Assembly: GCA_964514545.1 (NCBI GenBank)
Contig: CAZETR010000011.1
Span: 102,413 to 166,412, forward strand
From: an uncultured Gammaproteobacteria bacterium
GTDB lineage: Bacteria > Patescibacteriota > Microgenomatia > CAZETR01
Length of the DNA: 64,000 nt
Reading direction: 5' to 3'
The notes below the pieces were generated by a model. The model was not told the DNA's origin. It worked only from the letters and a program-made list of their open reading frames with translations, and did not search any database. Each line of letters opens with the position of its first letter. The first letter of the stretch is position 1. The position numbers were made by a program, and so were the translations under genes. Below are positions 24,595 through 31,907 of this stretch, in pieces.

Positions 24595-25503
24595 TTAGAG
24601 TATAACTCCGGCTTTGATTAACCAAACAATGATGGCAATGGTTAGGAGGAAGGCCATGTGTGCGGCCGAATCTGAAGACAGACGGTAAATCTTACGTCTC
24701 CAGATCACAAAGATATCAACAATTAAAAGCGCGAGTAGGAAGATGAGAATAAACGAAGCTAACCCCCGAGTGAGAACGAACGGGTTAACAACTAGTTTAG
24801 GTTCTCTAAGCGCAACTGATAAAGTCGAGCTTCTGTTCTTGCCCAGAGTCAGGAACGAGGCGGGGGGAGTTTTGGCTTCGGCAATATTTACGATTGATCG
24901 GGCATTCCCAACTTCCGGAACTCCAGTTAGACGAGTCCCGAACATCTGAACAACCAGTGTTGTCTCAACCCCTCCGAGTGTGCCATTGGCAACTGCAACT
25001 CCTATATCTTTGTATCTTGGGTTTAGCAGGTTTTCTCTGTGATATTGACTATTTACCCAAGCTTCTACGACGGCTTTTGAGTCGTTAAAGTCGCGGGCCA
25101 GATTTTCGCCAGCCAGCAAATAGTTGTACTTGGCTTGCGAGATAAAAAACCATGGCTCGGTGCCAGTGGGCGACACGTGAGCCCAGTAGTTTTTGGCAAA
25201 CATGTCCTGGGCTTTATTTTGGGCTGCTATGGTTAAGGAAGAGTCCGGGCTGACCTCTCCTATGCCTGCTTCTTTGCGTTTGCCGTTCGTTAGGTTGATC
25301 ACAGCTTCGGGTGAGATGTTGGACGCGTATCCCAGAACCAGAGGGCCGAGCTGCGGCCTGTTTATAGCGATCTGAATCAGGGCAAAAATACCAGCAAAGT
25401 AAACTATGGGGGAAGGATGGAGGAATCTAGCCCGATGGTTATTGGAAGGACGGGGGGCGAAATAGTGGTGGAGGCGGTGGGCAAGTGACATTTTGTCAAT
25501 CAA
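24595..25503 (-). CDS. CAP/SCP/PR-1-like domain protein flanked by N- and C-terminal TM helices
   Basis: NxxR...AQNKAQDMFAKNYWAHV...GENLA...AWVNSQYHRENLLNP...IGVA matches bacterial SCP (YkwD-like) domain motifs. Confidence 0.6.
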   Translation of the reverse strand: MIDKMSLAHRLHHYFAPRPSNNHRARFLHPSPIVYFAGIFALIQIAINRPQLGPLVLGYASNISPEAVINLTNGKRKEAGIGEVSPDSSLTIAAQNKAQDMFAKNYWAHVSPTGTEPWFFISQAKYNYLLAGENLARDFNDSKAVVEAWVNSQYHRENLLNPRYKDIGVAVANGTLGGVETTLVVQMFGTRLTGVPEVGNARSIVNIAEAKTPPASFLTLGKNRSSTLSVALREPKLVVNPFVLTRGLASFILIFLLALLIVDIFVIWRRKIYRLSSDSAAHMAFLLTIAIIVWLIKAGVIL

Positions 25504-25548: not shown

Positions 25549-26160
25549 TTACTCCTTGGTCGCCAGGTCCGCGTTTACCTGTATCCGTGGGCCAGCCAAA
25601 AATGGGGCCCCTGCTAGGAGCACCAGTTTTTGATCTTCGGTCCCGGTCGGGATGTCGGGATAGCTTTCAACCGTGTTGATGGAGGAAACTTTATAGGTAA
25701 ATCTTGAGCTTTCAAATCCAATTGTGAGCTCGTCTCCGCTTTCAAGATTTTTTAAAAAATAGAAATAAGGGTTGGTTCCGGGCCAGTTTGCGTGGAATAG
25801 CTCGTGGGCTGAGAGAACTACGGTTCCCGGGGCTCCGGGGAGACTCGAGGCCAGAGAGTGAATTAGCTTGTTTTGTGCAACTTTTCGGCTTTTATCTTCG
25901 AAGTCAACATTTTTTTCTACACTTACCGCAATTCCCAACCTGGGGATCGCAAGCCAAAAATCTGTTTTAGGAAGCTGGATTTCTTTGGTTCGGGTTGTCT
26001 CCGGGAGGTTACTATCTTCAGGGTTTGTGCTTGGAAGTACATATATTACTCCCCCTTTCCTGGCAAGCGAGAGCTCGACTGAGGTTTTGAAATAGGGAAA
26101 GAAAATGGCGCTTGCGGCCAACAGGCAGGTAAACAGTAATAATGTAAAGATGGTCCTCAT
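25549..26160 (-). CDS. sortase-fold protein, membrane anchored, with the catalytic Cys apparently replaced
   Basis: LAIPRLGIAVSV...HSLASSLPGAPGTVVLSAHELF...FLKNLESGDELTI...FTYKV...GPRIQV follows the sortase pattern (LxIPxIG, H, FxxLxxLxxGD, YxYxV, R). The position of the TLxTC motif reads LVLLAGAP, with no Cys. Confidence 0.55.
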   Translation of the reverse strand: MRTIFTLLLFTCLLAASAIFFPYFKTSVELSLARKGGVIYVLPSTNPEDSNLPETTRTKEIQLPKTDFWLAIPRLGIAVSVEKNVDFEDKSRKVAQNKLIHSLASSLPGAPGTVVLSAHELFHANWPGTNPYFYFLKNLESGDELTIGFESSRFTYKVSSINTVESYPDIPTGTEDQKLVLLAGAPFLAGPRIQVNADLATKE

Positions 26161-26162
26161 AG

Positions 26163-26591
26163 CTAGAACTTAAATTTTTTGGCAATTTTGCGAATAACTG
26201 AAGGTGATCGGGGAAGGTAAAAATTAATTACGCTTATGGCAAAAGCTATTCCTGCTGAATCGATTATGACATCTCTTATCCTGCCTTCCCGGGTGGGAAT
26301 GAATGTCTGGTGAATTTCATCCGAAATTGCGTAGAGAACGGCAAGTACAACGCTGGCAAGATATAGATTACTTTTGCTGATTTTAGCTGTATTTCTTAGT
26401 GATCTGTAAATTAGTGTGGCTAGAACGAAGTATTCGATAAAGTGGGCGGTCTTTTTGAGGAGAAAGTCGTAAAGAATAAATCTTGAGGCCTGAACGCTCG
26501 GACGGCTGCTGAGCAGAAAAATTATTAACGCCCAGATTATTGCAGGCAACCAAAATTGCAATTTGCGGACCATTACTTGTCTATGATACAC
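26163..26591 (-). CDS. VanZ-like family membrane protein
   Basis: 142 aa with 4 TM helices. DEIHQTFIPTREGRIRDVIIDSAG is the VanZ signature. Confidence 0.6.
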   Translation of the reverse strand: MYHRQVMVRKLQFWLPAIIWALIIFLLSSRPSVQASRFILYDFLLKKTAHFIEYFVLATLIYRSLRNTAKISKSNLYLASVVLAVLYAISDEIHQTFIPTREGRIRDVIIDSAGIAFAISVINFYLPRSPSVIRKIAKKFKF

Positions 26592-27459
26592 GAGACGGGT
26601 GGCGGAGAAAATCCAGGACGAACCAACCTACGGAGATTAAAATTAAGATGACTCCGGGGGCAATGAACAAAATTGGCGAAGGCTCTGATGACTTTGGCGT
26701 AGTTTGAGCTCCAAGCACTTGCGGAACTGGGGAATCTGAAACGTTGGAAGTAACTTCGGTTGGGAATGTCTCAGCTATATATGAGTTTGGCTGGGAGGGT
26801 ATTGGCGATTTTGCGGTAGATGCGGTGAGTGTTAGGGTTAAACTACGGGTTACCGATGGCAAAGCTGTTGGTACTGGCGTTGTGGTTTGGACAGGTGGAG
26901 GAGTGTTTGTGGGGTTTGGAGATGGAGTCGGGGTCAAGCTAGGTGTTGGGGTTGACGTGGGAAGAGGAGAAGGGGTCGGAGTAGGGGTGGGAGTGCTGGT
27001 CGGAGCTGGACTAAGCGTAATTGAATAGGCTGTCGAGTCGGAATGATCTGAAGTGTTTGAGACTAGGGCAAGCCTAATAGTGAAATAGTTTTGGCTTATT
27101 TGGGCAGTAGATGTCTTTGGCCTGCCGGTAATTTGAAAGGCTGCATTACCTGAGGAATCTGTATTTATTAGCGGAAAGTTAGAATAGGCAGATGAGTCAG
27201 AATACCAGTTTGAGTTATTTTGTGTCTCGCCATCATTTAAGGAGCTTGTTGATGGGCCAATTCGAAATTTAGCATAATAGCTTACAGAAGGAGAAAACCC
27301 GGAAAGTGAGACAGAAATATTTAGTACTTCCCCTATTTGGGCTGAAATAGGGGGATTAGCAACCGTAACCGTAGACGCAGCTTGAGTGACTTGAGGGCGA
27401 AGTAAAAAGAATGTGAGCCAAATTGGAACAAAAACTAATCTTTTATATTTATCTAACAT
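26581..27459 (-). CDS. secreted Pro/Thr-rich cell-surface protein with a C-terminal hydrophobic anchor
   Basis: Signal-peptide-like MLDKYKRLVFVPIWLTFFLL...AAS, a Ser/Asn-rich beta-like domain, a (PT)n/TPTPSP linker of about 90 aa, then a hydrophobic stretch plus basic tail (ILFIAPGVILILISVGWFVLDFLRHPSRVS). No LPXTG. Confidence 0.6.
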   Translation of the reverse strand: MLDKYKRLVFVPIWLTFFLLRPQVTQAASTVTVANPPISAQIGEVLNISVSLSGFSPSVSYYAKFRIGPSTSSLNDGETQNNSNWYSDSSAYSNFPLINTDSSGNAAFQITGRPKTSTAQISQNYFTIRLALVSNTSDHSDSTAYSITLSPAPTSTPTPTPTPSPLPTSTPTPSLTPTPSPNPTNTPPPVQTTTPVPTALPSVTRSLTLTLTASTAKSPIPSQPNSYIAETFPTEVTSNVSDSPVPQVLGAQTTPKSSEPSPILFIAPGVILILISVGWFVLDFLRHPSRVS

Positions 27460-28597
27460 GCCAGTACCAAGAAACAATGCCAGATCCATGGTCCACGGCG
27501 ACATAATTCATTGTAGAACCCTTACAGGAGATACTTCCACGATAGAGAGTCCCCGGTTTCGGGGTACGAATGGTCGGGTCGTCGGAGACCATGTCAATTC
27601 CCGTGTGGGGCCCGCCATTGTACCAGCCCAATTTGGCCCAATATGTCATGCCAAATCCTTGGGTGATTTTGGGGTTCTGGACCGGAAAGTCCCAATCACC
27701 GGAGAGGCTAAAGGTTGAGTCTGGCTGATTGTCCCAGGAGAGTGAAGTCTGTTTTAGGTACTTGGTGGGGTCTTGGGGTTCACCGTCCTTATTTACTTCG
27801 AAGTGGACATGGGGCCCAGAGGAACAACCCGGGGAACCGCTATTGCCAATTAAGGCAATTGTGTCCCCTGTGTTTATTGCTGTTCCGTTTTGAAGCTTTG
27901 CTATTCTCATTGCAGATCTTATGGATGCCTGTTCTGCCATTGCAGAGGTGAGGAGCGCCTGATATTTTTTTTCGTCGTTTTTGGTTATGGCTAGGAGATG
28001 CTGTTTTTCTTTGATTTGCATGGCTAAAAGTTTTTTCTGGGACTCCATTTTTTCTTTTAGTTTCTCTTCTTGGGTTTTTTGTTCAGAGTAGCTGGCCTGG
28101 GTTTGGACAACTTGAGAGAGAAGCTTTCGGTCATGAAGCTGGGCTGCTTTGACATATTTGAACTTGAGAACGAAGTTGCTGAGGCTGTTTGAGGAAATTA
28201 ATACGGTCAGGGGCTCATAATAGCTTTGTTTGTAGGTTTGAGCCACTCTGTTCTCCAGAATTTTGGAGAGTTGGTCAAGCGATACTTCGAGTCGGTCAAT
28301 TTTTCCCGACAATGCCAGAATCTGGTCTTCCGTCTGGGAGATTTTAAGCAGGGTAACCTGAATTTGACTATTCATAAATGTTATCTGGTTCCCCAGAGTT
28401 TTCGCTTGACCTCTGAGTTCGGAAATTTTATCTTCCAAGGCCTTGATTTCAGCATCTTTCTTGCTGAGTTCCTCTGAGCTTTGCGAGAGGGTTGGAGAAA
28501 CGAGGTTGACCAGGAGAGCGACGGAGATTAAAACAGCCAGAATGAAGCGGGGTCTAAATATCTTAGCCAGTGAAGAGCAGCTGCCTGGTTTTTTCAT
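27449..28597 (-). CDS. coiled-coil M23 (LytM-type) metallopeptidase, EnvC-like partner of FtsEX, with permuted catalytic motifs
   Basis: An N-terminal TM/signal and about 200 aa of coiled coil precede the M23 elements GDTIALIGNSGSPGCSSGPHVHFEV, then ITQGFG...GGPHTGIDM...GSTMNYVAVDHGSGIVSWYWHV. Last gene of the ftsE-ftsX operon. Confidence 0.8.
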   Translation of the reverse strand: MKKPGSCSSLAKIFRPRFILAVLISVALLVNLVSPTLSQSSEELSKKDAEIKALEDKISELRGQAKTLGNQITFMNSQIQVTLLKISQTEDQILALSGKIDRLEVSLDQLSKILENRVAQTYKQSYYEPLTVLISSNSLSNFVLKFKYVKAAQLHDRKLLSQVVQTQASYSEQKTQEEKLKEKMESQKKLLAMQIKEKQHLLAITKNDEKKYQALLTSAMAEQASIRSAMRIAKLQNGTAINTGDTIALIGNSGSPGCSSGPHVHFEVNKDGEPQDPTKYLKQTSLSWDNQPDSTFSLSGDWDFPVQNPKITQGFGMTYWAKLGWYNGGPHTGIDMVSDDPTIRTPKPGTLYRGSISCKGSTMNYVAVDHGSGIVSWYWHVR

Positions 28598-28603
28598 GAA
28601 GAT

Positions 28604-29473
28604 TTACCTGAGGTACCTTTTGACCGCGAGGTGGCTACTTGCGAATCCCAAAATTAGCCCCATTAACAATAGACCCGCGAGAAGGGCAAAGTAGAACCAG
28701 ATCGGAATCGGGAGTAGCGGGAGACCAGCGAGAAACGTAACCAGAAAAGGGGTGGAGTAAAGGAGCGAAACAAGTGAAATTCCCCAGCCAATCAAAGCTC
28801 CGGAAACTCCATAGAAAATGCCTTCAAGTAAGAATGGGGTGATGATATACCACTTGTCGGCACCGATTAAGTTGAGCGTTTCTACCTCTTCCTTTTTTGA
28901 AGATATTTTCATTCCGATAACTATGAGGATTGTGAGTAGAGCAAGAAGAGAGAAAGAGCCCACAAGGGCGATGCCCACAATGCGAACTGCCCTAGTCCAT
29001 TTGGAAACTGCAGAGATGATATCTTCTTGGAAAAGGACTTCATCGACCAGAGGTTCCTTTCTGATTACATCGGCTAGCTGTTTAAGGGAGGGGGCGTCTT
29101 TGGCGGATATTTCCAGAGAAGCCGGAAGGATATTGGCGGTTACCATTTCTAACAGTTGCGGATCGTTTTTATTTTGCTCACGATATATGTTTAGAGCCTC
29201 TTCCTTGGAAACAAATTTAACCTCGGTCGCGAGGCCAGAAGAATTTAACTTATCCCGAGTTTTGGCAATTTGGCCTGCTGACGCATCATCTTTAAAAAAT
29301 GCAATTACCTGGGGGCGAGTTTCAAAGTAACTTAGAACTACCGTCGAACCCAGAGCTACCATTGTAAAAGTGGCTGCAAGGAAAAAGGTCATACTGGAAA
29401 TACTTATAGCAGCGAATGCCTGATAAGGAGAACGAACTATGTGTCGTAGGGTCGTACGAAAATGATTTCTCAT
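28604..29473 (-). CDS. ftsX: cell division permease FtsX
   Basis: 4-TM FtsX topology with a large periplasmic loop and a C-terminal FtsX-like TM bundle. Its start abuts the ftsE stop. Confidence 0.8.
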   Translation of the reverse strand: MRNHFRTTLRHIVRSPYQAFAAISISSMTFFLAATFTMVALGSTVVLSYFETRPQVIAFFKDDASAGQIAKTRDKLNSSGLATEVKFVSKEEALNIYREQNKNDPQLLEMVTANILPASLEISAKDAPSLKQLADVIRKEPLVDEVLFQEDIISAVSKWTRAVRIVGIALVGSFSLLALLTILIVIGMKISSKKEEVETLNLIGADKWYIITPFLLEGIFYGVSGALIGWGISLVSLLYSTPFLVTFLAGLPLLPIPIWFYFALLAGLLLMGLILGFASSHLAVKRYLR

Positions 29474-30162
29474 TAATTAATTTTATGGCGGGGGTATTGG
29501 CCGGACTTTTCGTCTTTAATTATCTTTCCTTTCTTTAGGGAAATCACTCTATGGCCTAGCTCGTCGACTATTGTGGCGTTGTGAGTAGCCATAAGAACAG
29601 TCGTTCCCTTTTCGTTAATTGACTTTAACAGTTTCATTATTTGCATTGAAGTCCCCGGATCCAGGTTGCCAGTTGGCTCATCTGCCAACAACAGATCAGG
29701 TTTGACCACTACCGCTCTGGCAATTACGGTCCGCTGAACTTCGCCTCCGGCAAGCTGGGCTGGGAAGAGGTCCGCTCTGTCTGAGAGCTCAGTAAGCTCT
29801 AGTATTTCCTTGACTTGGTCTCGAATTACTTTCGGTTTGAGACCTTGAATTTCTAGTGCCAGAGAGACATTTTCATACACTGTTCTGTCCAGCAGAAGCT
29901 TGAAATCCTGGAAAACAACCCCTAGCCGTCTTCGGAGCAGGGGAATTTTGTTTAACTTGATCTTGGTAATATCAGTATCGCCGATTTTAATGATTCCTGA
30001 AGTAGGCGTGGTTTGGCGCAAGATCAGTCTGATTATCGTGGTTTTGCCGGCACCAGATGGGCCTGTAAGAAAAACGAATTCCCCTTGTTTTACTTTGAAC
30101 GTGATATCTGAAAGAGCTTCTATGCCGCCGTACTTTTTGGTAACTTCATCAAACTGTATCAT
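29473..30162 (-). CDS. ftsE: cell division ATP-binding protein FtsE
   Basis: Walker A GPSGAGKTT, ABC signature LAGGEVQR, Walker B LLLADEPTGNLD. 229 aa. Confidence 0.9.
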   Translation of the reverse strand: MIQFDEVTKKYGGIEALSDITFKVKQGEFVFLTGPSGAGKTTIIRLILRQTTPTSGIIKIGDTDITKIKLNKIPLLRRRLGVVFQDFKLLLDRTVYENVSLALEIQGLKPKVIRDQVKEILELTELSDRADLFPAQLAGGEVQRTVIARAVVVKPDLLLADEPTGNLDPGTSMQIMKLLKSINEKGTTVLMATHNATIVDELGHRVISLKKGKIIKDEKSGQYPRHKIN

Positions 30163-30803: not shown

Positions 30804-31907
30804 CTAGGCAAGATGCCTTAGTTCAGCATTGATAAATTCCTCAAGGTCGCCATCAAGAACTGCCTCGGGATTCGTAGTCTCGTAGCCTGTACGCAGATCT
30901 TTCACGAGTTTATATGGATGTAGGACATAGGAACGGATTTGGGTTCCCCAGGAAGCCATCGTTCGGCCACCTTTCAGCTCCAGTTTCTCCTTGTTGCGCC
31001 TGGATTCCTCTAATTCCCAAAGTTTTGCTTTAAGGATTTGAAAAGCTATCTTGCGGTTCTGCTCTTGGAATCTCTGGGTCTGGCATGAAACGATGATCCC
31101 GGTGGGTTTATGTTTGAGCCTGACAGCTGTTGAAACCTTGTTGACATTTTGACCGCCATGACCCGTAGCGCGATAGGCCTCAAATTCAATGTCGTCATCT
31201 TTTATTTCAATTTCGTTATCTTCGTCAAGAAGGGGTAGTACTTCAACCAAGGCAAATGATGTCTGGCGAAGGTTGTCTGCATTGAACGGTGACTGTCTAA
31301 CGAGCCTGTGGGATCCTGCCTCAAACTTGAGATTCCCATAGGCGTATAGGCCACTGATTGTGAAGGTAATGCTCTTAATTCCTGCCTCCTCGCCTGCGAT
31401 TTGATCCGTAACCTCTGCCTTGAAATCCCCTTTTTCAGCGAATCTTAAATACATCCTTGCTAGCATCTGGGCCCAATCCATAGCTTCCGTTCCCCCTTGC
31501 CCAGCATGTATTGTCAGAATTGCGTCTTTACTGTCGTATTTTTCAAAGAGGTAGGTGGCCAATTCTAGCTTTTCAATTGAGCTTTTTATTTGTCTGGTTT
31601 TTGCTTCTAACTCTCTTTTTTCACTTTCGGTTTCGTGAGTTGCACCTTGAGAGGCTATAAATTCGATGATTTCTTGGAGGTCACGAATTTCGTGTTCTAG
31701 TTTTTCCAGATTATTGAGCTGTTTTTGAAAATCGCCAATTTGGCGCATTATTTTTTGGGCTTTTTGTGAATCATTCCAAAAATCAAGATCCGAACTTTGA
31801 AGCTCGAGATCAGATAATTTAACCTTTAATTGGGGTGGGTCTAGCTTCTCTTTGACGCTGGCTAACTTTTCTTTTAGTTTTTGAAGTTCTTGACTTAGAT
31901 CGTCCAT
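30804..31907 (-). CDS. prfB: peptide chain release factor 2
   Basis: SPF tripeptide ([14 protein letters not shown]) and GGQ motif ([16 protein letters not shown]). A single uninterrupted ORF. Confidence 0.9.

Follow-up and report, generated by a model that had tools for sequence, protein, structure and literature searches.

The 64,000-nucleotide stretch of contig CAZETR010000011.1 analyzed here, called the window below, carries on its minus strand a gene for a protein with the fold of a sortase in which glycine occupies the position of the catalytic cysteine. We refer to this gene as a cysteine-less sortase paralogue, or pseudo-sortase. Read along the minus strand, the gene order around it is an RF2-type release factor, a 161-amino-acid protein with no family match, FtsE, FtsX, a coiled-coil M23 peptidase, a secreted proline- and threonine-rich surface protein, a VanZ-family membrane protein, the pseudo-sortase, a CAP/YkwD-family membrane protein, a 97-amino-acid membrane protein, and LigT (Table 1). 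The ATG start of the pseudo-sortase gene lies 2 nucleotides past the VanZ stop codon. An earlier note on this DNA had described the Pro/Thr-rich protein as adjoining the sortase-like open reading frame (ORF); the VanZ gene lies between the two, so the surface protein is two genes upstream. The G+C content of the window is 43.4%, and its genes, most of them minus-strand, are tightly packed and often overlap by a few nucleotides. No tRNA genes were found in the 64-kb window, no Rfam family reached its gathering score there, and a promoter and terminator scan of the region from 23 to 33 kb gave results near or within shuffle expectation.

Table 1. Features of the pseudo-sortase gene, its product, and the neighboring genes in the window.
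Feature	Position	Strand	Size or basis
Cysteine-less sortase paralogue (pseudo-sortase)	25549..26160	minus	203 aa + stop codon
N-terminal membrane anchor, residues 1-35	26056..26160	minus	model helix 2-35; hydrophobic MRTIFTLLLFTCLLAASAIFFPYF
Sortase beta-barrel domain, residues 66-203	25552..25965	minus	model strands and superposition on solved sortases
His119, counterpart of the catalytic His, kept	25804..25806	minus	alignments; motif LSAHE
Gly184 (GGG), catalytic-Cys column of TLxTC	25609..25611	minus	alignment and DNA read
Arg192 (GPRIQV), counterpart of the conserved sortase Arg, kept	25585..25587	minus	alignments
Beta6/beta7 loop, ~residues 165-178, subclade motif ESYPD	25627..25668	minus	model and alignment
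RF2-type release factor	30804-31907	minus	
FtsE	29473-30162	minus	Pfam; conserved upstream neighbor
FtsX	28604-29473	minus	Pfam; conserved upstream neighbor
Coiled-coil M23 peptidase	27449-28597	minus	Pfam; conserved upstream neighbor
Secreted Pro/Thr-rich surface protein	26581..27504	minus	sequence
VanZ-family membrane protein	26163..26591	minus	Pfam VanZ 57.5 bits, NCBIfam vanZ_1 86.5 bits
CAP/YkwD-family membrane protein, directly downstream of the pseudo-sortase	24595..25503	minus	Pfam CAP 69.9 bits
97-aa membrane protein, then LigT	downstream of the CAP gene	minus	

Sortase-like motifs run along the whole protein (LAIPRLGI, IHSLASSLPGAPGTVVLSAH, FYFLKNLESGD, FTYKV, GPRIQV, and LVLLAGAP), as the earlier note had described, and all of the motifs that it quoted are present in the ORF. 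The Pfam Sortase profile (PF04203, MEROPS C60) scored 40.0 bits, above its gathering score of 26.6; the match covers only profile positions 1 to 88 of 125, so that the half of the profile with the Cys and the Arg is left unaligned. The NCBIfam models for sortase classes C, D, SrtD, E, F, and GN gave 13.7 to 23.8 bits against cut-offs of 140 to 166, the best being SrtD and class D (23.7 to 23.8 bits, cut-offs 140 to 165), and the generic sortase_fam model gave 20.9 against a cut-off of 39.35. Placement in any defined sortase class was rejected because every NCBIfam class cut-off was missed. An AlphaFold2 model built on a 70-sequence alignment had a mean predicted local distance difference test score (pLDDT) of 94.2 and a predicted template modeling score of 0.88. 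It shows a helix at residues 2 to 35 followed by the eight-stranded beta-barrel of sortases (strands at residues 68-72, 77-85, 98-102, 112-117, 144-149, 152-163, 177-184, and 191-202), and it superposes on solved sortases over 120 to 130 residues at 2.0 to 2.5 Å. A wrong fold assignment is ruled out by the confident model and this superposition, and by fold and Pfam score the window protein is a member of the sortase superfamily. The hydrophobic N-terminal helix suggests that the protein is anchored in the membrane with its domain on the extracytoplasmic side.

The family profile, LtLqTCwPpgt..krlvV, aligns end to end with solved sortases, onto their TC...R, and places Gly184 of the window protein (LVLLAGAP) exactly in the column of the catalytic cysteine, which in sortases belongs to the TLxTC motif that closes strand beta7. 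Since this alignment fixes the column, a shifted cysteine was rejected. The sortase domain contains no cysteine anywhere, and the stretch LLAGAPF contains no Ser, Thr, or Cys. The sole cysteine of the protein is C12, inside the N-terminal membrane helix, so the earlier note was right that the catalytic residue is missing. Both the catalytic histidine (His119) and the beta8 arginine (Arg192) are retained. A domain without cysteine cannot form a thioacyl intermediate, and the window protein is very probably not a thiol transpeptidase, with no catalysis at the canonical site. Given that the catalytic cysteine is missing and that all NCBIfam class cut-offs failed, it is best filed as a sortase-fold homologue (a non-peptidase homologue) and not as a sortase.

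The same column bears on one alternative, namely, that this is an ordinary sortase whose cysteine codon was lost by sequencing or assembly error. Beyond the prior that metagenome assemblies hold errors, nothing speaks for it. The GGG codon of Gly184 is two substitutions away from any Cys codon (TGT or TGC), with the frame intact on both sides; an identical protein was recorded twice, in the 220-kb NCBI contig and in an independent Logan assembly of run ERR3478687; and the nearest relatives, which come from other samples, lack the cysteine too. The two-nucleotide difference and the existence of cysteine-less relatives led us to reject the error explanation, the chance of which we regard as negligible.

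Relatives were collected with an exhaustive HMMER search of 1.84 billion representative proteins, which gave 346 matches at E values of 1e-3 or lower; a word-index homologue search with the single protein had returned only the protein itself. Most of the 346 matches are sortases of about 200 to 250 amino acids with the signature LQTC[WY]PPGT..KRL, and family members carry source names such as 'sortase [Candidatus Levybacteria bacterium]' and 'sortase [Patescibacteria group bacterium]'. Going by these names and by published work on sortases in that group (PMC6744442), the parent family of the window protein is most likely the housekeeping sortase of Patescibacteria, the LQTC[WY]PPGT family. The four nearest relatives (P0002 to P0005, the window protein being P0001) matched at E values from 2e-37 to 2e-28 with 33 to 41% identity, and all four are without cysteine and have serine in the Cys column (LIFLSSSPF, LLLIASQPF, LVLLTSSPF, and LILLSSSPF). 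Elsewhere the column holds Ala (P0047), Gly (P0007, P0009, and P0022), Asn (P0018, P0039, and P0153), or Leu (P0082). P0027 has Gly there and Gln in place of the histidine, and P0119, counted here as cysteine-less, has Ala there, yet a Cys one position earlier. Related proteins thus lack the cysteine as well, with Ser, Ala, Gly, or Asn in its place. The group is rare, making up about 15 of the roughly 260 family members examined. A profile search with the cysteine-less alignment returned nearly all canonical sortases and one new cysteine-less member, P0153. Pattern scans run with the single protein and with alignment A5 over 185,579 species-representative genomes returned no relative, and a metagenome scan gave only contigs of organisms already represented among these relatives (locus L011 corresponds to L005 and L012 to P0004), with divergence too low to compare nonsynonymous and synonymous substitution rates (dN/dS).

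A column-by-column comparison of 14 cysteine-less with 244 canonical proteins shows that more than one residue has changed. At position 184, cysteine is present in 100% of the canonical proteins (244/244) and 0% of the cysteine-less ones (0/14). Threonine at position 183 drops from 98% to 36% and serine at position 120 from 99% to 36%; the alanine at position 100 (94% of canonical proteins) and the phenylalanine at position 117 (92%) are lost; and position 192, which is 98% Arg in canonical proteins, holds R, K, or W. Position 119 is His in all canonical proteins (100%, 244/244) and in 93% of the cysteine-less proteins (13/14). Core positions are common to both sets (F68, I72, P108, G112, L139, G142, D143, Y156, P186, and A197). 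Such relaxation of the whole active-site shell, with the fold kept, is the usual signature of a pseudoenzyme. In a neighbor-joining tree of the catalytic domain, made with the best 150 representatives, of which 14 are cysteine-less, 13 of those 14 fall into one 14-member clade whose remaining member, P0054, bears the cysteine; P0082 lies outside.

The pattern of replacement also separates the two options that the earlier note had offered, a catalytically dead pseudo-sortase or a sortase-like enzyme that uses another nucleophile. Under the latter, the group would be active, with Cys-His switched to Ser-His in a subclade, and the window protein itself would use another residue, such as Ser166 in the ESYPD loop, while His119 would serve as the base. 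The serine in the Cys column of all four nearest relatives fits this, as do the histidine kept in 13 of 14 proteins and the Arg or Lys at position 192 in the subclade. So does the beta6/beta7 loop, which falls between model strands 152-163 and 177-184 and is predicted to lie beside the active site: E165, S166, P168, and D169 are invariant in P0001 to P0004 and present in P0005 too. However, the window protein has glycine at the site and no hydroxyl or thiol in LLAGAPF, other cysteine-less subclades have Gly, Ala, or Asn, and the ESYPD motif is not conserved beyond the closest five proteins, being SGFPS in P0047 and NSFPS in P0119. Because the replacing residue varies by subclade (G, S, A, or N), it is not a conserved alternative nucleophile, and Thr183, Ser120, and Arg192 have relaxed along with the cysteine. 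In addition, a Cys-to-Ser replacement cripples Staphylococcus aureus SrtA. We consider an alternative nucleophile quite improbable; the dead pseudo-sortase fits better with the G/S/A/N column and the relaxed Thr183, Arg192, and Ser120.

Related loci place the cysteine-less gene in a recurring setting, with the gene order RF2-x-FtsE-FtsX-M23-surface protein-VanZ-pseudo-sortase shared among relatives. The full string FtsE-FtsX-M23-surface protein-VanZ-cysteine-less gene is found in the window, L005, L006 (the locus of P0002), L013, and L014 (with the Gly-type P0009), and VanZ is immediately upstream of the cysteine-less gene in L003, L004 (P0004), L005, L006, L007, L013, and L014. The spacing between the two genes is a 2-nucleotide gap in the window, a 1-nucleotide gap in L003 and L004, and a 14-nucleotide overlap in L013. 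In L002 (P0047), VanZ and the cysteine-less gene are separated by TsaE and a TsaD-family fragment, so that VanZ is two genes away; in L008 and L009 (P0007), the same pair stands immediately before the cysteine-less gene, and these short contigs show no VanZ. This common TsaE/TsaD-family insertion, in which the short TsaD-family fragment is possibly TsaB (L002 1777-2511 and L008 1021-1780), links Ala-type (P0047) and Gly-type (P0007) loci.

In several of these loci a canonical sortase is encoded as well. It follows the cysteine-less gene immediately in L008 and L009 (with LQTCWPPGT) and in L013 and L014 (with LQTCYPPGT), and in L013 and L014 the next gene encodes a 1,142-amino-acid surface protein whose Pfam matches are faint for SpaA and weak for SdrD_B. 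The canonical sortase of L005 (TLYTC) is encoded 7.6 kb downstream of the cysteine-less gene, directly before a CAP gene. The block of about 7.6 kb that separates the two in L005 (10650-18250, equivalent to L011 6650-12600) codes for secreted proteins rich in the repeats SGNGADSxN...DTGDNKANKNTGGN (201 and 435 amino acids in L011) and for large proteins without a family match. No canonical sortase adjoins the cysteine-less gene in the window, where the CAP gene follows directly, or in L002. Of the canonical sortase and LPXTG substrates that might accompany such a gene, neither was found in the 64-kb window, while the sortase does lie beside or near the gene in related loci.

The CAP gene follows the cysteine-less gene in L002 and the canonical sortase in L005, and CAP/YkwD genes always come after sortase or pseudo-sortase genes (window 24595-25503, L002 3304-4191, and L005 18795-19778). 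The CAP/YkwD protein has an N-terminal transmembrane (TM) segment, a CAP domain, and a conserved C-terminal module that consists of P-[FL]-x-LTR-[GN], a TM helix, a basic patch of the form [RL][RK]-x-I-x-R, and a second helix ending in G[VA]IL. The M23 domain of the FtsEX-associated peptidase seems circularly permuted: the C-terminal half of solved M23 domains is matched by residues 238 to 283 (the HxH half, GPHVHFEV), while residues 299 to 381 align (the HxxxD half, GPHTGID ... VAVDHGSGIVSWYWHV) to the N-terminal half. Pfam likewise gives two stretches, and the L005/L011 orthologue has the same order.

Sequence divergence within these loci informs a further alternative, that the gene is a relic without function, a sortase duplicate now devoid of the cysteine and drifting to loss. 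Between the window and L005, identity is 35.5% for the pseudo-sortase, 67.8% for FtsE, 56.4% for FtsX, 63.1% for the M23 protein, and 49.2% for VanZ, making the pseudo-sortase the most diverged gene of the string. Its relaxed active-site residues fit a relic too, as does the rarity of the group, including the lack of any match by pattern scans in the species-representative genomes. Against this, the cysteine-less ORFs are intact at 200 to 210 amino acids and in the same syntenic position across 27 to 42% identity, the hydrophobic core and the histidine are conserved, the fold prediction is very confident, and the tight stop-start spacing with VanZ is kept in several lineages. The divergence also resembles that of the neighboring active sortase: between L013 and L008, the cysteine-less proteins (P0009 and P0007) are 41.9% identical and their adjoining active sortases 48.0%, while pseudo-sortase and adjoining sortase share 33 to 35% identity within L008 and within L013. 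The intact ORFs of constant length, the conserved core, the confident fold, and the tight VanZ spacing are the reasons not to regard the gene as a decaying relic, which we judge rather unlikely. At the level of sequence, the intact ORFs and the divergence comparable to that of the neighboring active sortase argue that the cysteine-less paralogues are under purifying selection.

The surface protein encoded upstream of VanZ has an N-terminal hydrophobic segment, a beta-rich domain, a Pro/Thr linker, a C-terminal membrane helix, and a basic tail. The earlier note had described its tail as resembling a sorting signal, and this stands as far as the C-terminal membrane helix and basic end are concerned; an LPXTG motif is absent. 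It is the only secreted protein of the window with a C-terminal TM helix and basic tail, and no LPXTG-type cognate substrate was found within the 64-kb window, where a scan of all ORFs for LPXTG-type motifs gave only spurious matches in short, unlikely ORFs. Its C-terminal P-x-x-F-I-x-P-G, TM helix, and basic tail align with those of the lamin-tail-domain (LTD) proteins that L003, L005, and L006 encode at this point of the locus. A single-sequence model was poor (pLDDT 49.8), showing only beta strands and a helix at residues 278 to 301.

LTD proteins occupy the same syntenic position in L003, L005, L006, L013, and L014, and the P-x-x-F-I-x-P-G at the helix start is common to these orthologues. 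The window counterpart keeps the Pro/Thr linker and the C-terminal anchor and has a different beta-rich N-terminal domain without a Pfam match, which gives the impression that one domain was exchanged for another while stalk and anchor were conserved. The surface proteins of these loci have a TM helix and basic tail at the C terminus, with LPXTG in none. The tripeptide VLG is present in six of eight surface proteins and ILG in one, 9 to 55 residues ahead of the C-terminal helix, as in PQVLGAQTT..., NRVLGISNE..., and GQVLGGEGEGEFEEFLPEEDGFPWAW.... The surface proteins concerned are the window protein at 26581-27504 (residues ~262-307), L003 674-1501, L005 8788-9531 and 14716-17022, L008 2-676, and L013 6479-7558 and 9352-12780. 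Against a background of 5.9% of 80-amino-acid windows, P is about 1e-6 if the proteins are independent and about 8e-4 for three of four independent families. Going by its recurrence in these sequences, [VI]LG could be a sorting motif of Patescibacteria sortases.

Taken as a whole, we favor the reading that the gene product is a sortase paralogue without catalysis that serves in binding or regulation, and we consider this probable though far from assured. In the simplest history, the sortase gene would have been duplicated in tandem here long ago, and one copy would have lost its cysteine; the active copy would later have been lost or relocated in some lineages, that of the window included. With the active sortase gone from the window locus, a partner would be encoded elsewhere, or the pseudo-sortase would work alone. 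It may act by binding instead of catalysis, like other dead-enzyme paralogues. The beta6/beta7 loop forms the wall that binds the sorting signal in S. aureus SrtA, and the conserved ESYPD loop, together with His119 and Arg192 lining the former active site, suggests that a ligand site is still maintained. The retained groove could hold the C-terminal tail of a surface protein or a cell wall precursor. Alternatively, the pseudo-sortase could partner with an active sortase, with the translationally coupled VanZ membrane protein, or with both. In either mode it would modulate the retention or attachment of surface proteins. Any one specific binding or regulatory role, drawn from sequence and gene order, is proposed tentatively and is clearly more doubtful than the lack of catalysis.

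Several observations weigh against the favored reading. The retention of His119 in 13 of 14 cysteine-less proteins and the serine in the Cys column of all four nearest relatives could both mean residual or altered chemistry in the subclade. The position of the pseudo-sortase as the most diverged gene of the string also fits weak function. When the six-frame translation of the 64-kb window was scanned with hidden Markov models, no second sortase emerged, and thus no local partner. Finally, the cysteine-less clade in the neighbor-joining tree could in part be long-branch attraction. A bolder proposal, which we regard as a long shot, is that cysteine-less sortases are dedicated to receiving or holding a C-terminal sorting signal of CPR surface proteins that is not LPXTG, or that the Ser-bearing members are the first natural Ser-His sortases. 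In the receptor version, the candidate signals would be the recurrent [VI]LG tripeptide or the P-x-x-F-I-x-P-G opening of the C-terminal helix, and the protein would work with VanZ and pass substrates to an active sortase where one exists. In the Ser-His version, the window protein would represent a secondary loss.

Among known systems, the closest are the LQTC[WY]PPGT sortases of Patescibacteria, which belong to the same family by the HMMER matches, share the arrangement of an N-terminal membrane helix and one sortase domain, have core residues and the histidine in common with the window protein, and adjoin the cysteine-less gene in L008 and L013. They differ in that the window protein has Gly for Cys, with TCWPPGT degraded to AGAPFLAG, and in that Thr183, Ser120, Ala100, and Phe117 are not conserved in the cysteine-less set. 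Compared with class D and E sortases (Clostridium perfringens SrtD, 4d70; Streptomyces coelicolor SrtE1, 5cuw), the window protein shows only 17 to 24% identity and lacks the cysteine, and no LPXTG or LAXTG substrate lies near its gene. A conceptual parallel is provided by EnvC and NlpD, degenerate, noncatalytic LytM/M23 factors that activate cell wall amidases, EnvC working with FtsEX. They too are envelope enzyme folds without catalytic residues that serve as binding or regulatory subunits, and FtsEX and an M23 protein are coded in the gene string of the pseudo-sortase. This is an analogy only; their fold and chemistry are unrelated to those of the pseudo-sortase.

A sortase family of the Patescibacteria, or candidate phyla radiation (CPR), has been described as fam000526, and sortase is unusually widespread in these bacteria (Meheust et al. 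2019, PMC6744442). In the literature searched, no natural cysteine-less sortase lineage, pseudo-sortase, or VanZ-sortase or VanZ-FtsX link was described. Peptidase databases flag non-peptidase homologues in many families, and many enzyme families have pseudoenzyme branches, so that meeting sequences of this kind is no surprise in itself. What is new is that they form a conserved group, occupy a fixed locus, are paired with an active sortase, and are coupled to VanZ.

In textbooks, sortases figure as cysteine transpeptidases defined by a His-Cys-Arg triad; they are studied as drug targets and used as protein-ligation tools. If the favored reading is true, sortases would join the enzyme families with regulatory pseudoenzyme members, all the more so since two relatives encode an active sortase right beside the paralogue. 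The episymbiotic lifestyle of Patescibacteria depends on their cell surface, and the finding, if true, would point to an unexplored layer of surface-protein handling in these bacteria.

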